Sequence record: PP400788
Direction: 5' to 3' (one strand)
DNA length: 64,000 nt
From: Escherichia phage FL33
Shown here: one piece after another, positions 1 to 44,420 of the stretch
How positions within the stretch are numbered: the first letter of the stretch is position 1
Layout of the letters: each line of letters begins with the position of its first letter
Notes under the pieces: generated by a model
What the model saw: only the letters and a program-made list of their open reading frames with translations
Told to the model about the DNA's origin: nothing
Databases searched by the model: none
Made by a program: the position numbers and the translations under genes

Positions 1-1
1 A

Positions 2-301
2 GTGTCATTACAGAATAGCTGGGCGCCAAATGCTACAGCAGGTGGCGGTGGCGGCAGACCATTTGGCCTCGGCGGCGGTGGCGTTAATTGGCCTGGCGGT
101 AATGCTAGTTTGACGTCTCCGGGCAGTGCCGGTTACACTTCCCAATTCGGCGGAGGCAATGGCGGTGATGCTGGAGGTCGGGGCGGAGATGGATGGGGTA
201 ATCACTTATCTAGATCTGGCGGTGGTGCTCCTGGCAGAGCAGTATTCGGTTCTTCACCATCATGGGGCGCTACAGGCACGATCTACGGCTCCTGGATTTA
301 A
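2..301 (+). CDS. 38: Long tail fiber adhesin gp38-like, C-terminal fragment (5' end outside window)
   Basis: ORF open to window edge; glycine-rich blocks (GGGGG, GGGNGG, GGRGGDG) typical of T2-type gp38 adhesins; directly upstream of holin t. Confidence 0.55.
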   Translation: MSLQNSWAPNATAGGGGGRPFGLGGGGVNWPGGNASLTSPGSAGYTSQFGGGNGGDAGGRGGDGWGNHLSRSGGGAPGRAVFGSSPSWGATGTIYGSWI

Positions 302-7113: not shown

Positions 7114-7377
7114 TCATAGTTCAATCTCAGCGATTTTCATTTCATTACTATTAATAGCCGCTTTAAGACTATCTGAAAGAATTACATTCCAATGGTCATT
7201 CATATGACCACTAACTAAGCGTGTAATTTCTTCGGGAGTTGAAAAATAAGGCGTATCAGACTCCCAATGTGATAGTCCCAAACGAGTATAAATCATACCT
7301 TCATCATCGCTAGAATATTCAACTGACACAAACTCATCAGTTATTTTATGTTTAGCGTAATAAAATTTAAATTTCAT
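7114..7377 (-). CDS. Hypothetical protein
   Basis: 87-aa ORF immediately downstream of an early promoter with GGAGG RBS. Confidence 0.55.
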   Translation of the reverse strand: MKFKFYYAKHKITDEFVSVEYSSDDEGMIYTRLGLSHWESDTPYFSTPEEITRLVSGHMNDHWNVILSDSLKAAINSNEMKIAEIEL

Positions 7378-7404
7378 TTTTACTCCTCCGTAGCTGATAG
7401 TTGT

Positions 7405-7433
7405 ATAGTACCACGGTCCTTGTGGTATGTAAA
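7405..7433 (-). promoter_or_regulatory. Early sigma70-type promoter (repeated element)
   Basis: TTTACA-17bp-TACTAT, conserved flanking sequence. Confidence 0.6.
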
Positions 7434-7450
7434 CCGTTTTGTGAAAATTT

Positions 7451-8008
7451 TTAAATGGAAAGATACCATCCGTTGTAGTTGCTTTTTCTTACAACCTTAC
7501 GAAGGTCTTCTCTATCACCGATGAACTTCGGAGTGTACTGGATGACACCTGGATGAATTTCTTTAGTGTTGAATATAATTATACAGTCAGCGACCTGATG
7601 ATTCAGAATGGGCCCTAGATTTATTCCAGAACCGTATGGATACTCTCCGCTGCATCCGGTTGTTACTGAAATCCAACGTGAGTCAGTTTGATGTGTTTTG
7701 ACTTCTACACGAAGCCCGCAGTATTTTGGATGCGCTAATACATCCCATGCGTACGTATATGGGTCATTAACATCCTCTTGACCTTTATTAACATACCCGC
7801 TCAGCCAATCGGCTACAAAAAACTCTGCATACACAGCGATACGACATCTTTCAATAACTTCTGCTTTATCCTGATTAGGATTTTGTTTTAAAGAGTATCT
7901 TGCTGTATCAGCAATTTTGACCTTCATTTCACTAGTCAAATCATTGTTCGATAGGGTAAATGTTGGAATCTGAAATAGTCTCTGTAAACCCGGATTCGTT
8001 TTCTGCAT
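7451..8008 (-). CDS. denB: Endonuclease IV DenB (probable)
   Basis: 185 aa, same length as T4 DenB; located between ndd block and rIIB. Confidence 0.7.
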   Translation of the reverse strand: MQKTNPGLQRLFQIPTFTLSNNDLTSEMKVKIADTARYSLKQNPNQDKAEVIERCRIAVYAEFFVADWLSGYVNKGQEDVNDPYTYAWDVLAHPKYCGLRVEVKTHQTDSRWISVTTGCSGEYPYGSGINLGPILNHQVADCIIIFNTKEIHPGVIQYTPKFIGDREDLRKVVRKSNYNGWYLSI

Positions 8009-29012: not shown

Positions 29013-29369
29013 TTAAAAGAATTTAAATTTTTTCTTTGACCTTTTATTAAATGCATCTTGTAGTTGCATTGTAATACATTTTTCTACATGAGGAGCTAAC
29101 TCAGCTTTTCTTTCTTGGTCAAGAACAGCAAAGTCCATTACGACTTTTCCATCAACCCAATCTAATTTTGTCACATACACAATGTGTGTAGAACCATCTT
29201 CTAGTTTAATGATAATCTCCTGGATAACATTTTCCATGGCAGATTTAATTATCTTAAGAGATTCATTAAAAAGACGTTCTTTTCTTTCTTCTTCCCCCTC
29301 CGAAGAGGGGGATTCGTCGATAATTTCTAAATCTAAATCATCTTTATTCATTAAATTCTTCCATATCAC
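29013..29369 (-). CDS. 40: gp40-like head assembly protein
   Basis: 118-aa ORF between 41 and uvsX. Confidence 0.6.
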   Translation of the reverse strand: MIWKNLMNKDDLDLEIIDESPSSEGEEERKERLFNESLKIIKSAMENVIQEIIIKLEDGSTHIVYVTKLDWVDGKVVMDFAVLDQERKAELAPHVEKCITMQLQDAFNKRSKKKFKFF

Positions 29370-30525
29370 TTAACTGATCTAGGTCAGTTTCTAAATCAGC
29401 TGCTGATTTACTTTTACTTTCTGGAGATTTAAATTTTTCAACCTTTGAGTTAATTAATTCATCAACTTCGGCTTCAACAATTTCATTACTATCAATAGCA
29501 CCTAATTGATAAGCACGTTTAATAGCATCTCGGAATGGTTGATGCTTAAATAAAGGACCCCAGAATGTAGTGCAGTTGGTATCTTTTGCACGCCAAGATT
29601 TTTCTTCGCGAATCATCTCGCCTGTTTCTTCGTCAAGAAATTCACGAGCATACCAGCCATTTTTAGGTTTTACTACAAATCCTAATTCAAGAGCCATATC
29701 TAACAATCCAGAATAAGGATCGATACCACCGTCAAATTTAACATCAATAAAGAATTTACTTTTTTCTTTAACGGTACGAGATTTTTCTACATTTAGAACA
29801 AATTGATACCCCTGAAGATCAGAACCATCTTTAATCTGGCGCTTACCGATAATGAATACAGTATCAGCCGAATACATTACGCCTGTACCACCTGTCATCA
29901 CGGTTTTACTAAACATTTCAATTGTTTCAATTGTATGGTTAACCGCAACGCATGGAATATTTTTAATACTAAAATAAGGAGTAACAATACGGAATAATGA
30001 CTTCAGCGATTTAGCACGAGTCATATCTGCCACAGATTTTTCATTCAAGGCATCTTCCGTTTCTTTCTTAGAAGCCATATTACCGATTGAGTCGATGAAT
30101 ACAATAACCTTTTCACCACGCTCAATAGCTTCAAGCTGATTCACCATATCAATTTTCAGTTGTTCAACTGACTGAATTGGTGTATGAATTACTCGTTCCG
30201 GGTCAACTCCCATGGATCGCAAATAAGCTGGAGTGATACCAAATTCGCTATCATAAAATAGACAAACTGCATCAGGATATTTGTTCAAATACGCCGCAAC
30301 CATAGTCAAAGACATATTTGATTTAAAGTGTTTAGAAGGACCTGCAAAAATGGTTAAACCAGACTGCATACCACCATCAATCGCACCGGAAATAGCAATA
30401 TTAAGCATTGGGATTTTTGTACGGATTACATCCTTTTCATTAAAGAATTTAGATGTAGTCAGTTCAGCAGTCATTTTAGAAGTGGAAGCTTTAATCAAAC
30501 GGGATTTTAAATCTGCAATAGACAT
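29344..30525 (-). CDS. uvsX: Recombinase UvsX (RecA/Rad51-like)
   Basis: 393 aa; N-terminus and core highly similar to remembered T4 UvsX. Confidence 0.95.
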   Translation of the reverse strand: MSIADLKSRLIKASTSKMTAELTTSKFFNEKDVIRTKIPMLNIAISGAIDGGMQSGLTIFAGPSKHFKSNMSLTMVAAYLNKYPDAVCLFYDSEFGITPAYLRSMGVDPERVIHTPIQSVEQLKIDMVNQLEAIERGEKVIVFIDSIGNMASKKETEDALNEKSVADMTRAKSLKSLFRIVTPYFSIKNIPCVAVNHTIETIEMFSKTVMTGGTGVMYSADTVFIIGKRQIKDGSDLQGYQFVLNVEKSRTVKEKSKFFIDVKFDGGIDPYSGLLDMALELGFVVKPKNGWYAREFLDEETGEMIREEKSWRAKDTNCTTFWGPLFKHQPFRDAIKRAYQLGAIDSNEIVEAEVDELINSKVEKFKSPESKSKSAADLETDLDQLSDMEEFNE

Positions 30526-30602
30526 TCATTTTTTCCATAGGCATCATTATATTTTCCTCACCGGTTAAAGATAGAGTAATTATAACACAATAAATTTAGG
30601 CA

Positions 30603-31445
30603 TTAATCAACTACTATTGGATGAATAGCATTAAACTTATGAAACGCTTCTGATTTTTCTTTGCGCGAAACACACATGCGAAGAACCTTTAATGGCTCAT
30701 CTTCTTCACCCAACGATTTTCTCTTTTCAATATTCGATGTTTTCCAACGAGCTTGCTCTGGAAATTCTCTATTGATTTGCTCAAGCGCTCTATTATGTTT
30801 AGAATTGCTACGAATTGAACTACATCCACCGGGGGCTTGTGCTTTTCCGGATACAACCAGATATTTGAACAAGGCCAAATGCGGATAACCTTGATTAATT
30901 AAATTGAGAAATGCATACATATCTTCGCATAAATCAATTTTTCCATACCCAATTTGTTCTGTTGTAAGTTTTCCAAGGTCATACCATGTATTCGTGAATC
31001 CATATGAATTTTCACGATAATTACCCCAAGATGAAGTAATTTTAAAAATAGGTAGACGAGCATGGCCATGATAATACCCGCAATCCATGGCATCTTCAAC
31101 GTATTGAATCAATTCATAGAACTGTTCACGAGTTAATTGATTAATTTTATCTACGCAGCGACGATCATCTTTCTTTCGCATTGAACTCATACGAATAGTA
31201 GTATCATCATCGATCATCCAAATTCGTTGACCTGCATACATATCAGTAATTGCTTTACGAGTACCGGCAATTCCATTAACATCATCAGGAATAGCTATAA
31301 TTTTAGCTCTAGACCCATAAGCATCATAATAAGCTTTTTCTTCGTGTTCACGCACTACAATATGGGGTTCATAATCAGTCGGAAACATATTAAGGGCAGA
31401 AACTGCCCCGACACGCTGATAACTTGGAATTACGAATTGAATCAT
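30603..31445 (-). CDS. Glycosyltransferase, GT-A/GT2-like (hydroxymethylcytosine sugar transferase candidate)
   Basis: 280 aa; N-terminal VIPSYQRVG and WMIDDD DxD motif; occupies the T4 beta-gt locus but unlike T4 beta-gt. Confidence 0.6.
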   Translation of the reverse strand: MIQFVIPSYQRVGAVSALNMFPTDYEPHIVVREHEEKAYYDAYGSRAKIIAIPDDVNGIAGTRKAITDMYAGQRIWMIDDDTTIRMSSMRKKDDRRCVDKINQLTREQFYELIQYVEDAMDCGYYHGHARLPIFKITSSWGNYRENSYGFTNTWYDLGKLTTEQIGYGKIDLCEDMYAFLNLINQGYPHLALFKYLVVSGKAQAPGGCSSIRSNSKHNRALEQINREFPEQARWKTSNIEKRKSLGEEDEPLKVLRMCVSRKEKSEAFHKFNAIHPIVVD

Positions 31446-32083
31446 TTAAGTGCCTTACATTTGTCAAAATGGTATCTTGTCATATTTGGCCCACGTCCTT
31501 TTAGTCCGCAATGCGGACATATTTTTTCTATCAAATTATGAGGTTTTCCTTTACGATTTTTAGACATCGTTTCTTTAATTATTTTAGCTTTTTCTGCGCC
31601 AAAAATTTCTTCATAAGTTTTACCAGAATTTTCCTTTGCTCGATTTATAATTCCATATGCCTGCTCATTTTTACCATACATTGGATTACCTTCGCCTTTC
31701 ATTCTTTTAGAATGGTCAGGACGCTTAATTCCACGAAAGGCATTTCCACATTTATATCTTTCTTCTGGAGATAGTTTCTTACCGTACATTCCATTTAATT
31801 TGCCCGGAAAACTTCCTCCCCATGCTTCATTCTTTAAATTATATGAATCTGGACAATTAGCAGCATCTAAACAAGTTAAAATAATTTCTTCAACCTGTCT
31901 AAACATTGGTCCTTCATATAATATTTCTTTATTAAAGGATTTTATTCCATATTTCTTTTTAGCATGTTGCCAAACTACACCCGAACCATCATAATTCAGG
32001 TTGTGACCATCATGACTTCCTATATACCACTTTTTAGTTTTAGGATGTTTATACTTATAAACATGTGGCGCATTTACTTCCAT
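31442..32083 (-). mobile_element. Free-standing GIY-YIG homing endonuclease gene (Seg-like)
   Basis: 213 aa; N-terminal VYKYKHPKTKKWYIGS GIY-YIG motif, NUMOD3-like repeats (GKLNGMYGK, GEGNPMYGK), C-terminal CPHCG..C; overlaps gene 42 end and glycosyltransferase start. Confidence 0.7.
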
Positions 32084-32814
32084 TTTCCAGTATAATCCTT
32101 TTTAGCAATATGGGTTTCACCGGTGTTCCACCAATGGTCAACCAAATAAAACTGATTTTCGTACACATGAAGACTTCCAACATTCCATATAATAGAACCT
32201 GCTTTATACTGTCGTGATGGGTCGCCTGCATTCAAATCAGATACTAATTTATCTAGTACGTATTTTTGCCACGCATAATCATTACGATAGCCTGCCCAGC
32301 AGTCATTGCTTCTCATATTAACAACTGCATTGACTTTCTTATCACGAATTAAGTATTGTACTGTATTAGTACACATGAAATCTGACATACCATCTTTATT
32401 GTAGTCAAATTGCATGGATGGACGAGTATAAATCATGATACCACGTCGAGAATCAGGATTTTGACCAAGTTCAGCTAAACACATATCATACTGGGCATAG
32501 TTATCTTCTGACCAGATAGCCCAACCATAATTCGAGTTAATTTCGCCTTTAGAAGATGCTACTTGCTGCCAAATCTTCGGTGTTTCACCCGGAATATCTT
32601 TAACGAACAAGCTTTTAGATTTATACCATTCAAGTTCACGCTGAATGTATTCATCATTAAGAGCGCCAAAAATAAACGGTTCATCTGCTACAAATGATGC
32701 GCCAATAATTTCAATAGTTTTAACACCAGTTTTATCAACTACGAAATCTTTTTCTTTTAATGCAAGCCCCAAATGAAGACGGATTTCTTCAACTGTCATA
32801 GAGTCACTAATCAT
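32074..32814 (-). CDS. 42: dCMP hydroxymethylase gp42
   Basis: 246 aa as T4 gp42; thymidylate-synthase-like fold. Confidence 0.93.
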   Translation of the reverse strand: MISDSMTVEEIRLHLGLALKEKDFVVDKTGVKTIEIIGASFVADEPFIFGALNDEYIQRELEWYKSKSLFVKDIPGETPKIWQQVASSKGEINSNYGWAIWSEDNYAQYDMCLAELGQNPDSRRGIMIYTRPSMQFDYNKDGMSDFMCTNTVQYLIRDKKVNAVVNMRSNDCWAGYRNDYAWQKYVLDKLVSDLNAGDPSRQYKAGSIIWNVGSLHVYENQFYLVDHWWNTGETHIAKKDYTGKWK

Positions 32815-32821
32815 TTAAACC

Positions 32822-32971
32822 TCAATTGATACATTCATATTTAACTTGTAACAGTAATAAACCCCAACCTAAAATAATAGTTGGAATCATAAGAGGAACC
32901 GTTACACTATAGTATATACTTATTATAATCATCAAGATTAAAAGCAACACTGCTATAATTTTGCTTTTCAT
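32822..32971 (-). CDS. Small membrane protein (49 aa)
   Basis: Hydrophobic ORF whose ATG overlaps imm stop (ATGA); below ORF-track cutoff; coordinates approximate. Confidence 0.4.
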   Translation of the reverse strand: MKSKIIAVLLLILMIIISIYYSVTVPLMIPTIILGWGLLLLQVKYECIN

Positions 32972-33219
32972 TCCTTCTCTCTGATGATAATTACCTGATT
33001 TGGTTGTGCAGACTTTTTGGTTTCACCCGCAATTGACCAAATAAATGTAATAAACCAACCAATAATTGACCAGTTAAACAGTAAAGATGTGAAAAAGATT
33101 CCTACTGTCGATTTTGACCCACGCATCAAGGCGATGAACCATGGAAGCATGTATATAATAATAGCCAACACACCTGAAACTAAAACCATAAAAATTGAAC
33201 CTGCTACTAAAGTTTCCAT
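32968..33219 (-). CDS. imm: Superinfection immunity protein Imm
   Basis: 83-aa two-TM membrane protein at T4 imm position between 42 and 43. Confidence 0.85.
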   Translation of the reverse strand: METLVAGSIFMVLVSGVLAIIIYMLPWFIALMRGSKSTVGIFFTSLLFNWSIIGWFITFIWSIAGETKKSAQPNQVIIIREKE

Positions 33220-33226
33220 CTTTTCC

Positions 33227-33607
33227 TCACTTAGTCAAATTTTTTACGCATGAATTATAAGAATTCACTACATACTCCATCGGAGCATTTTTACCAGTAC
33301 GCCATTGGTAATTATTAGCCCAATTAGCCCAAATTTCGGCGCAGTAGTTTTCAATTTTTTCTTCGCGTGTAATTACATCTGAATTACGATATGCTTGGGC
33401 AGATTCATCTGGACGAATAGCCTCATCAAAATTCGCCTGCATTTGTTCTACTGTCTGTTTTGGAGCTTCTTTATAACACTTGACATTAGGATTATAAAAC
33501 TTGCTTGAACAGTTTACAATTTTTCCTACATCAGACTGATTTACTACCGGTCCTTGAGCTACACAACCAGTAAGACCTAATGCAATAACCAAAATAGCGA
33601 TTTTCAT
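33227..33607 (-). CDS. Putative lipoprotein (126 aa)
   Basis: ATG at 33607 with GGAGA RBS; lipobox LTGC after signal peptide. Confidence 0.6.
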   Translation of the reverse strand: MKIAILVIALGLTGCVAQGPVVNQSDVGKIVNCSSKFYNPNVKCYKEAPKQTVEQMQANFDEAIRPDESAQAYRNSDVITREEKIENYCAEIWANWANNYQWRTGKNAPMEYVVNSYNSCVKNLTK

Positions 33608-43217: not shown

Positions 43218-44420
43218 TTATTTTGTAATAATGTCAAACTGCTCTTTAAAGCAGAAGCTTGAATCTTGATGCTGATACAAAAATTCATAAGCTTTTTCGC
43301 GTTCACGGTCATAAAGAGCTCGGTCAGATGACAGTTCTTTAATACGTTCAAATGTTGATTCCATGTCATTTTCATCAAACCAAACGATACCGCTATCGTG
43401 CGAAATTAATGGAGTATTATCAACACGGAATTTTAAATTTTCGCCAGTAGATTTCCAAAATACTGGAATTGTTCCACATGCACCAAGCTCGAGATGAGTA
43501 TATTCTAAAGAACGCTGTAGATATTTTTTATCTAATTTACTCAGCTGATAACCAAATCCGGATTTACTCATGCGTTCAAGCATTTCGCTATTTACATAAC
43601 GGTCGAGAATTTGCGTCGGCAAATTAGGAGCAATTTTAATTTGGTCTACTTGATGAAGACGATAATACTCGTATGGAATTCCTTTTTCTTTAATAGGAAT
43701 GAACGCTGGAGAACGTTCCAGACCTTCCATAATAGTACTTAGTCCTGCAGGTTTAAGATGTTTTTCGTGAAAATCAAACATCTGATAAAAGCCTTTCCAT
43801 GTAGTAGTACGACCAATCCAACGGTTGATATTCATGTTAATTTCAGAAACATCTTTCCAGTAAGTTGATCGAACCTTCGCAATATCCATAGGAGGCTGAA
43901 AGTTATATACAGTCGGTGCTTCTTCAATATCATCAAACAGTGAAACAGTTTCTGGATACCATTCTTTCATTAAAACTTTATTAAAATCGCCATTATCAGA
44001 ATGGCTAAAAATAACATCAGCTCGACGAACAGTTTCTTCTAATCCCAAATTTCGACGCAAAGAAAGAGAAGAATGGTCATGCTGATAAACTACAACACGA
44101 ACCGAAGGTTTAATGTTATCAATAATTTTTTTATAGTTATTAATCGTGTCTTCTTCAACTGAAGTAGCAGGAACTGAATTGATAACTAGAATATCACAAT
44201 CATTTACCAACTTAAGTGTTTTATCGTATTCTTTTGCCAATAAAACCGGAATTGAAAATGATTTATAATCATGCGCGCAATTACGAGTAAATGATTTATC
44301 TTTAGCATAAACCAAAGTTACTTCATGACCATTTTTAATAAACCAATCACGCTGCTCAAGAGAAAATTTAGTTACACCGCAACCTTCAAGACCTCGAGCC
44401 ATAAAAATGCATACTTTCAT
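43218..44420 (-). CDS. DNA alpha-glucosyltransferase
   Basis: 400 aa; near-identical to remembered T4 alpha-gt. Confidence 0.9.
   Translation of the reverse strand: MKVCIFMARGLEGCGVTKFSLEQRDWFIKNGHEVTLVYAKDKSFTRNCAHDYKSFSIPVLLAKEYDKTLKLVNDCDILVINSVPATSVEEDTINNYKKIIDNIKPSVRVVVYQHDHSSLSLRRNLGLEETVRRADVIFSHSDNGDFNKVLMKEWYPETVSLFDDIEEAPTVYNFQPPMDIAKVRSTYWKDVSEINMNINRWIGRTTTWKGFYQMFDFHEKHLKPAGLSTIMEGLERSPAFIPIKEKGIPYEYYRLHQVDQIKIAPNLPTQILDRYVNSEMLERMSKSGFGYQLSKLDKKYLQRSLEYTHLELGACGTIPVFWKSTGENLKFRVDNTPLISHDSGIVWFDENDMESTFERIKELSSDRALYDREREKAYEFLYQHQDSSFCFKEQFDIITK

Follow-up and report, generated by a model that had tools for sequence, protein, structure and literature searches.

Gene order between uvsX and gene 42

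The window, meaning the whole 64,000-nt stretch of DNA analysed here, carries on its minus strand an open reading frame of 280 codons that runs from ATG to stop at 30603..31445. A reading of this frame as a pseudogene was considered and rejected. The surrounding 4 kb match Escherichia phage FL34 (PP400789.1), a Tequatrovirus isolated on an E. coli K-12 host from pig faeces in Denmark, at 100% identity, and hundreds of further Tequatrovirus genomes at 96-97%. The first 147 or so bases of the window (1..147) lie past the point where the linear record PP400789.1 ends, so that the window must derive from a copy of the genome that is rotated or circularly permuted. The features considered here are as follows.

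29344..30525, minus strand: uvsX, downstream of ba-gt on the coding strand
30603..31445, minus strand: ba-gt (ggt), 280 aa, predicted beta-glucosyl-HMC-alpha-glucosyltransferase (ba-GT) of the TAGT family, GT-A fold
30921..30926, minus strand: E174-D175 of ba-gt, candidate catalytic base by analogy with inverting GT2 enzymes, an 'ED' motif about 95 residues after the DxD motif
31203..31211, minus strand: DDD (D79-D81) within WMIDDD (residues 76-81), DxD metal/nucleotide-sugar motif with a putative catalytic role
31407..31433, minus strand: VIPSYQRVG, N-terminal strand and loop (residues 5-13), including the invariant R11
31413..31415, minus strand: R11 codon of ba-gt
31442..32083, minus strand: free-standing Seg-like GIY-YIG homing endonuclease gene, 213 aa, outside the sugar pathway
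32074..32814, minus strand: gene 42, dCMP hydroxymethylase and source of hmC, 94% identical to T4 gp42
43218..44420, minus strand: a-gt, DNA alpha-glucosyltransferase, 400 aa, predicted to make the alpha-glucosyl-hmC acceptor

An earlier note on this DNA, made from the letters alone, had placed a 280-residue protein with the motifs VIPSYQRVG and WMIDDD between uvsX and gene 42, at the locus where T4 encodes its 351-residue beta-glucosyltransferase (beta-GT). The frame, both motifs and the flanking genes are as described, and the 351-aa T4 gene does occupy the syntenic site; what escaped that note is the endonuclease frame that intervenes before gene 42. T2 and T6 show the same order of uvsX and gene 42 around ba-gt, to which the window adds the endonuclease. 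Scans for promoters and terminators across 30300..33300 gave counts not above those in shuffled sequence.

The 213-residue endonuclease matches PHROG 314 (5.6e-31) and the PADLOC HEase family (5.6e-10) and is 30% identical to T4 SegA (E = 5e-11). Its gene lies exactly in the junction of gene 42 and ba-gt: the two frames share 10 nt where gene 42 ends and the endonuclease begins, and the endonuclease stop codon runs into the ba-gt start codon (ATGA). Copies at 95-100% identity occur in 77 phage records, but none in T2, T6, T4 or any of the eight Durham phages compared; in the Durham phages TB37, Solly, CP, Some and EH2, unlike in the window, gene 42 directly abuts the TAGT gene. Over the final ~340 nt of gene 42 (32074..32414), the window shows 7-24 differences per 100 nt from endonuclease-free phages, compared with 0-10 per 100 nt over the remainder of the gene (0-4 relative to T2 and T4), with amino-acid replacements in this tract such as VVFGF to CWAGY and SRH to ENQ. 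Judged by its sequence, the diverged 3' end of gene 42 looks like a co-conversion tract, or a target or cleavage-immunity tract, beside the endonuclease.

Identity and fold of the 280-residue protein

Aligned over its full length with the annotated ggt products, the window protein is 98% identical to the T2 enzyme (273/280) and 97% identical (~271/280) to that of T6, a comparison the earlier note had proposed. Matches in tblastn, far beyond chance, extend to 689 phage records, many of them annotated as 'beta-glucosyl-HMC-alpha-glucosyltransferase' and 471 of them reaching at least 95% identity, and PHROG 842 of the same name is matched at 1.8e-88. The Pfam family PF20691 (TAGT, for TET-associated glycosyltransferase) is hit with 40.3 bits against a gathering cut-off of 27.5, residues 3-207 spanning the whole 205-position model; NCBIfam and PADLOC yielded no matching family. 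The breadth of TAGT became apparent only in an exhaustive profile search, which recovered 927 family representatives at E <= 1e-3 where a word-indexed protein search had given just 10 relatives. Similarity to T4 beta-GT, which the earlier note had named as the result that would overturn its view, was not found by blastp, whose best alignment covers 8 residues at E = 3.4, nor did the Pfam search match the T4 family PF09198. The protein is an orthologue of the T2/T6 enzyme, and we put the probability that the frame encodes a T2/T6-type ba-GT, a predicted second-glucose transferase, at about 0.95. This identity is already known from textbooks and the recent literature, and nothing here is new about the enzyme family; Winkler and Rueger reportedly cloned and sequenced the T2/T6 gene in 1993.

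The window enzyme shares with ba-GT of T2 and T6 its length, its uvsX and gene 42 neighbours, a partner alpha-GT and the lack of a beta-GT. It differs in four private substitutions and in the endonuclease lying between ba-gt and gene 42; moreover, it lacks both the R11H and P251S substitutions of T2 and the lesions found in two T6 records. In T6 record MH550421 (ba-gt at 7138-7980 of the extracted segment), a TAG stop stands at codon 10 and the annotated start is M20, whereas in AP018814 (1135-1974 of the extracted segment) an in-frame 3-nt deletion reduces the invariant DDD to DD. These differing lesions may have arisen as mutations in the stocks or as errors of sequencing.

A sequence search of the PDB with the window protein returned chance matches only (E of at least 0.77), leaving no detectable relative of solved structure, and the fold was therefore tested through a predicted model. 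An AlphaFold2 model built from nine homologues reached a pTM of 0.78 and a mean pLDDT of 76; ten-residue blocks within the N-terminal 90 residues score 86-95, and the C-terminal third is of low confidence, with pLDDT below 50 at residues 194-210. Strand E3-7 lies within the VIPSYQRVG region (pLDDT ~90), and WMIDDD follows strand E74-77. Foldseek aligned the model to the PDB entries of TarS, TarP, AvpGT, WrtF and K4CP with E ~3e-4, although TM-scores were just 0.34-0.45. As modelled, the protein consists of one Rossmann-like domain of the GT-A type that would bind the nucleotide-sugar, and its predicted fold matches GT2 enzymes, as the motifs had suggested to the earlier reader. For the T6 enzyme, too, AF3 modelling gives a GT-A fold, which clustering places as sister to GT2 (PMC13216743).

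Conservation was scored on an alignment of 146 full-length family representatives. R11 is kept in all 144 non-gapped representatives; among the 146, D80 and D175 are kept in 100%, D79 in 98%, D81 and I6 in 95%, P7 in 92% and E174 in 87%. Together with R63, G186, G206, G207 and R212, these make up the near-invariant positions (each 87-100%), and the window protein has every one of them. Roles for individual residues follow by analogy with GT-A/GT2 enzymes: DDD (79-81) would bind the metal and the UDP-sugar, and E174/D175, by comparison with inverting GT2 enzymes, is the likely catalytic base. In its score above the gathering threshold, its near-invariant residues and its GT2-like predicted fold, the enzyme resembles TAGT at large; it differs in that, within the T-even branch, the partner enzymes are an alpha-GT and a dCMP hydroxymethylase instead of a TET/JBP dioxygenase.

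Glucosylation genes and the predicted pathway

The complete FL34 genome, searched by tblastn, contains one TAGT gene and one alpha-GT gene; the same search found no beta-gt homologue (best E = 5), and no beta-glucosyl-hmC is therefore expected. The frame at 43218..44420 had been described as a T4-like alpha-gt. That it encodes an alpha-GT stands (PF11440, 783 bits), with identities of 395/400 (99%) to T2, 396/400 to TB37 and 364/400 (91%) to T6. The alpha-GT occurs as two alleles ~9% apart in protein, one in FL34, T2, TB37 and Solly and the other in T6, Geo and EL, and the positions at which they differ are concentrated in residues 47-118 and 221-298. Which allele a phage has does not track its gentiobiose level.

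In the proposed pathway, gp42 would make hm-dCMP, which is then incorporated into DNA, and alpha-GT would attach an alpha-linked glucose to hmC in the DNA. With UDP-glucose as donor, ba-GT would then join a second glucose to the first by a beta-1,6 linkage, giving alpha-gentiobiosyl-hmC; as a GT-A, GT2-like enzyme it would be inverting. This is the T2/T6 type of pattern, with glucose added onto alpha-glucosyl-hmC, that the earlier note had thought possible, and the near-identity to both enzymes, the PHROG 842 match and relatives whose DNA carries gentiobiosyl-hmC (PMC13390438) bear it out. The PF20691 protein of T2 and T6 has been described as a beta-glucosyl-HMC-alpha-GT that makes gentiobiosyl-methylcytosine (PMC13216743), and deletion of ba-gt from T6 leaves DNA with alpha-glucosyl-hmC only, the second glucose being lost (PMC11078745).

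T4 beta-GT (PF09198) resembles ba-GT in genomic slot and in the UDP-glucose donor, inverting chemistry and beta linkage predicted for the latter; it differs in its unrelated sequence, GT-B fold and length (351 versus 280 aa), and its acceptor is bare hmC, whereas that predicted for ba-GT is alpha-glucosyl-hmC (PMC13216743). A sugar pattern unlike that of T4, as the earlier note had predicted, is supported; its framing as a departure from the norm is not, as T4 is itself the rarity (PMC13216743). The majority of phages pair TAGT with an alpha-GT or a beta-GT, and the T4-like pairing of alpha-GT with beta-GT occurs in just 6 of 753 genomes (PMC13216743). By HPLC/MS, all ten Durham Tequatroviruses with alpha-GT and TAGT at this locus contain alpha-gentiobiosyl-mdC and none of the beta-glucosyl form (PMC13390438). 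The combination of alpha-GT and TAGT is the common Tequatrovirus state, and T4 beta-gt is the exception.

Predicted extent of the second glucosylation in FL34 and its meaning

T6 contains about 72% gentiobiose, and the difference between T2 and T6 in this respect is sixty years old. For an estimate of where FL34 falls, its TAGT was compared with those of TB37, Solly, CP, Some, EH2, Geo, EL, BGP, T2 and T6 (the Durham phages QOTSP and NR1 were left out), and its alpha-GT with those of T2, T6, TB37, Solly, Geo and EL (BGP and Some were left out). The DNA of TB37, Solly, CP, Some and EH2 is about one-third hmC and two-thirds gentiobiosyl-hmC, with traces of the mono-glucosyl form (PMC13390438); the FL34 TAGT agrees with those of these five phages at 273-275 of 280 positions, and its alpha-GT with those of TB37 and Solly at 396-397 of 400. 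In Geo, EL and BGP, which are closely related and were counted as one lineage, hmC, mono-glucosyl-hmC and gentiobiosyl-hmC stand at ~1:2:2, the second glucosylation being incomplete (PMC13390438). Here agreement with FL34 is 270/280 for TAGT and, for Geo and EL, 364-365/400 for alpha-GT. Six TAGT substitutions are specific to this lineage (I50V, M89I, R95K, C97R, A202S and Q203H), and FL34 has none of them.

T2 DNA, by comparison, holds ~70% mono-glucosyl-hmC and ~5% gentiobiosyl-hmC (PMC11078745). The T2 and TB37 enzymes differ solely by R11H and P251S, and both substitutions are found in each of the two T2 records:

MH751506, 7286-8128 of the extracted segment: T2 ba-gt with R11H and P251S
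AP018813, 1283-2125 of the extracted segment: T2 ba-gt with R11H and P251S

FL34 has R11 and P251. Because R11 is invariant in all 144 representatives, R11H is a candidate cause of the low gentiobiosyl-hmC content of T2, so far as sequence can tell. At positions that mark T2 or the Geo/EL/BGP lineage, FL34 equals the five gentiobiose-rich phages except at I101, which it has in common with Geo, EL and BGP. Its own private substitutions (D19N, T51A, R92K and A278V) are conservative and all lie in variable columns.

Given that TB37 and Solly have nearly the same versions of both enzymes, and that FL34 lacks R11H, its DNA is probably gentiobiose-rich, like that of TB37 and T6. The proportions that we infer would be about two-thirds gentiobiosyl-hmC and one-third plain hmC, with little mono-glucosyl-hmC. 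Near-identity does not guarantee these proportions, as the enzyme pair of T2 is almost identical to that of its gentiobiose-rich relatives and yet gives only ~5% gentiobiosyl-hmC. Moreover, the homing endonuclease is absent from all of the measured phages, and expression of ba-gt, hence the ratio of mono- to di-glucosylated hmC, could differ in FL34.

ba-GT might instead act at a low level, as in T2, leaving the DNA mostly alpha-mono-glucosylated with a few per cent gentiobiosyl-hmC. That FL34 has the T2-type alpha-GT allele, that T2 is mostly mono-glucosylated despite a 98%-identical ba-GT (PMC11078745), and that the endonuclease replaces the direct start-stop overlap of gene 42 and ba-gt seen in T2, which could reduce expression, all speak for such an outcome. 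However, TB37 and Solly share this alpha-GT allele and are gentiobiose-rich (PMC13390438), FL34 lacks the only two substitutions that separate the T2 enzyme from that of TB37, and ba-gt keeps an ATGA start-stop overlap with its new upstream frame. We regard a T2-like level as unlikely.

Transfer of a different sugar, or formation of a different linkage, as may occur in distant TAGT members, is highly improbable. The family is large and diverse, as the 927 representatives attest, and many of its members occur without an alpha- or beta-GT (PMC13216743); against this stand the 97-98% identity to enzymes of phages with measured gentiobiose and the confinement of the private substitutions to variable columns. 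Least credible of all, to the point of being negligible, is that ba-GT, by virtue of its syntenic position between uvsX and gene 42, stands in for T4 beta-GT and beta-glucosylates bare hmC to give a T4-like alpha/beta mono-glucosylation, as its sequence is unrelated and its fold GT-A rather than GT-B (PMC13216743), phages with the TAGT gene show no beta-5-glc-mdC (PMC13390438), and T6 without ba-gt retains alpha-glucosyl-hmC only (PMC11078745).

Two by-products are mildly new, namely R11H as a candidate for the T2/T6 difference and the lesions in both public T6 records. A more speculative and rather doubtful reading is that natural variation at the ba-gt locus sets, and can tune, the proportion of mono- to di-glucosylated hmC. 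The variation would comprise R11H in T2, the six Geo/EL/BGP substitutions, and the endonuclease insertion in FL34 and 76 other records, which takes the place of the direct coupling of gene 42 to ba-gt and comes with the diverged 3' end of gene 42. If this were true, T2 R11H would be a hypomorph, and FL34, although its enzyme is wild-type, would have a ratio unlike that of relatives that lack the endonuclease.

Which of the host's defences can attack a phage is determined by the pattern of sugars on its hmC. In vitro, gentiobiosyl-hmC resists the Brig1 glycosylase, whereas alpha-mono-glucosyl-hmC is cut (PMC11078745); GmrSD-type enzymes, including BrxU, cleave all of these glucosylated forms (PMC13390438, PMC13216743). 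For FL34, both the chemistry of its DNA and its sensitivity to such defences can now be sensibly predicted.
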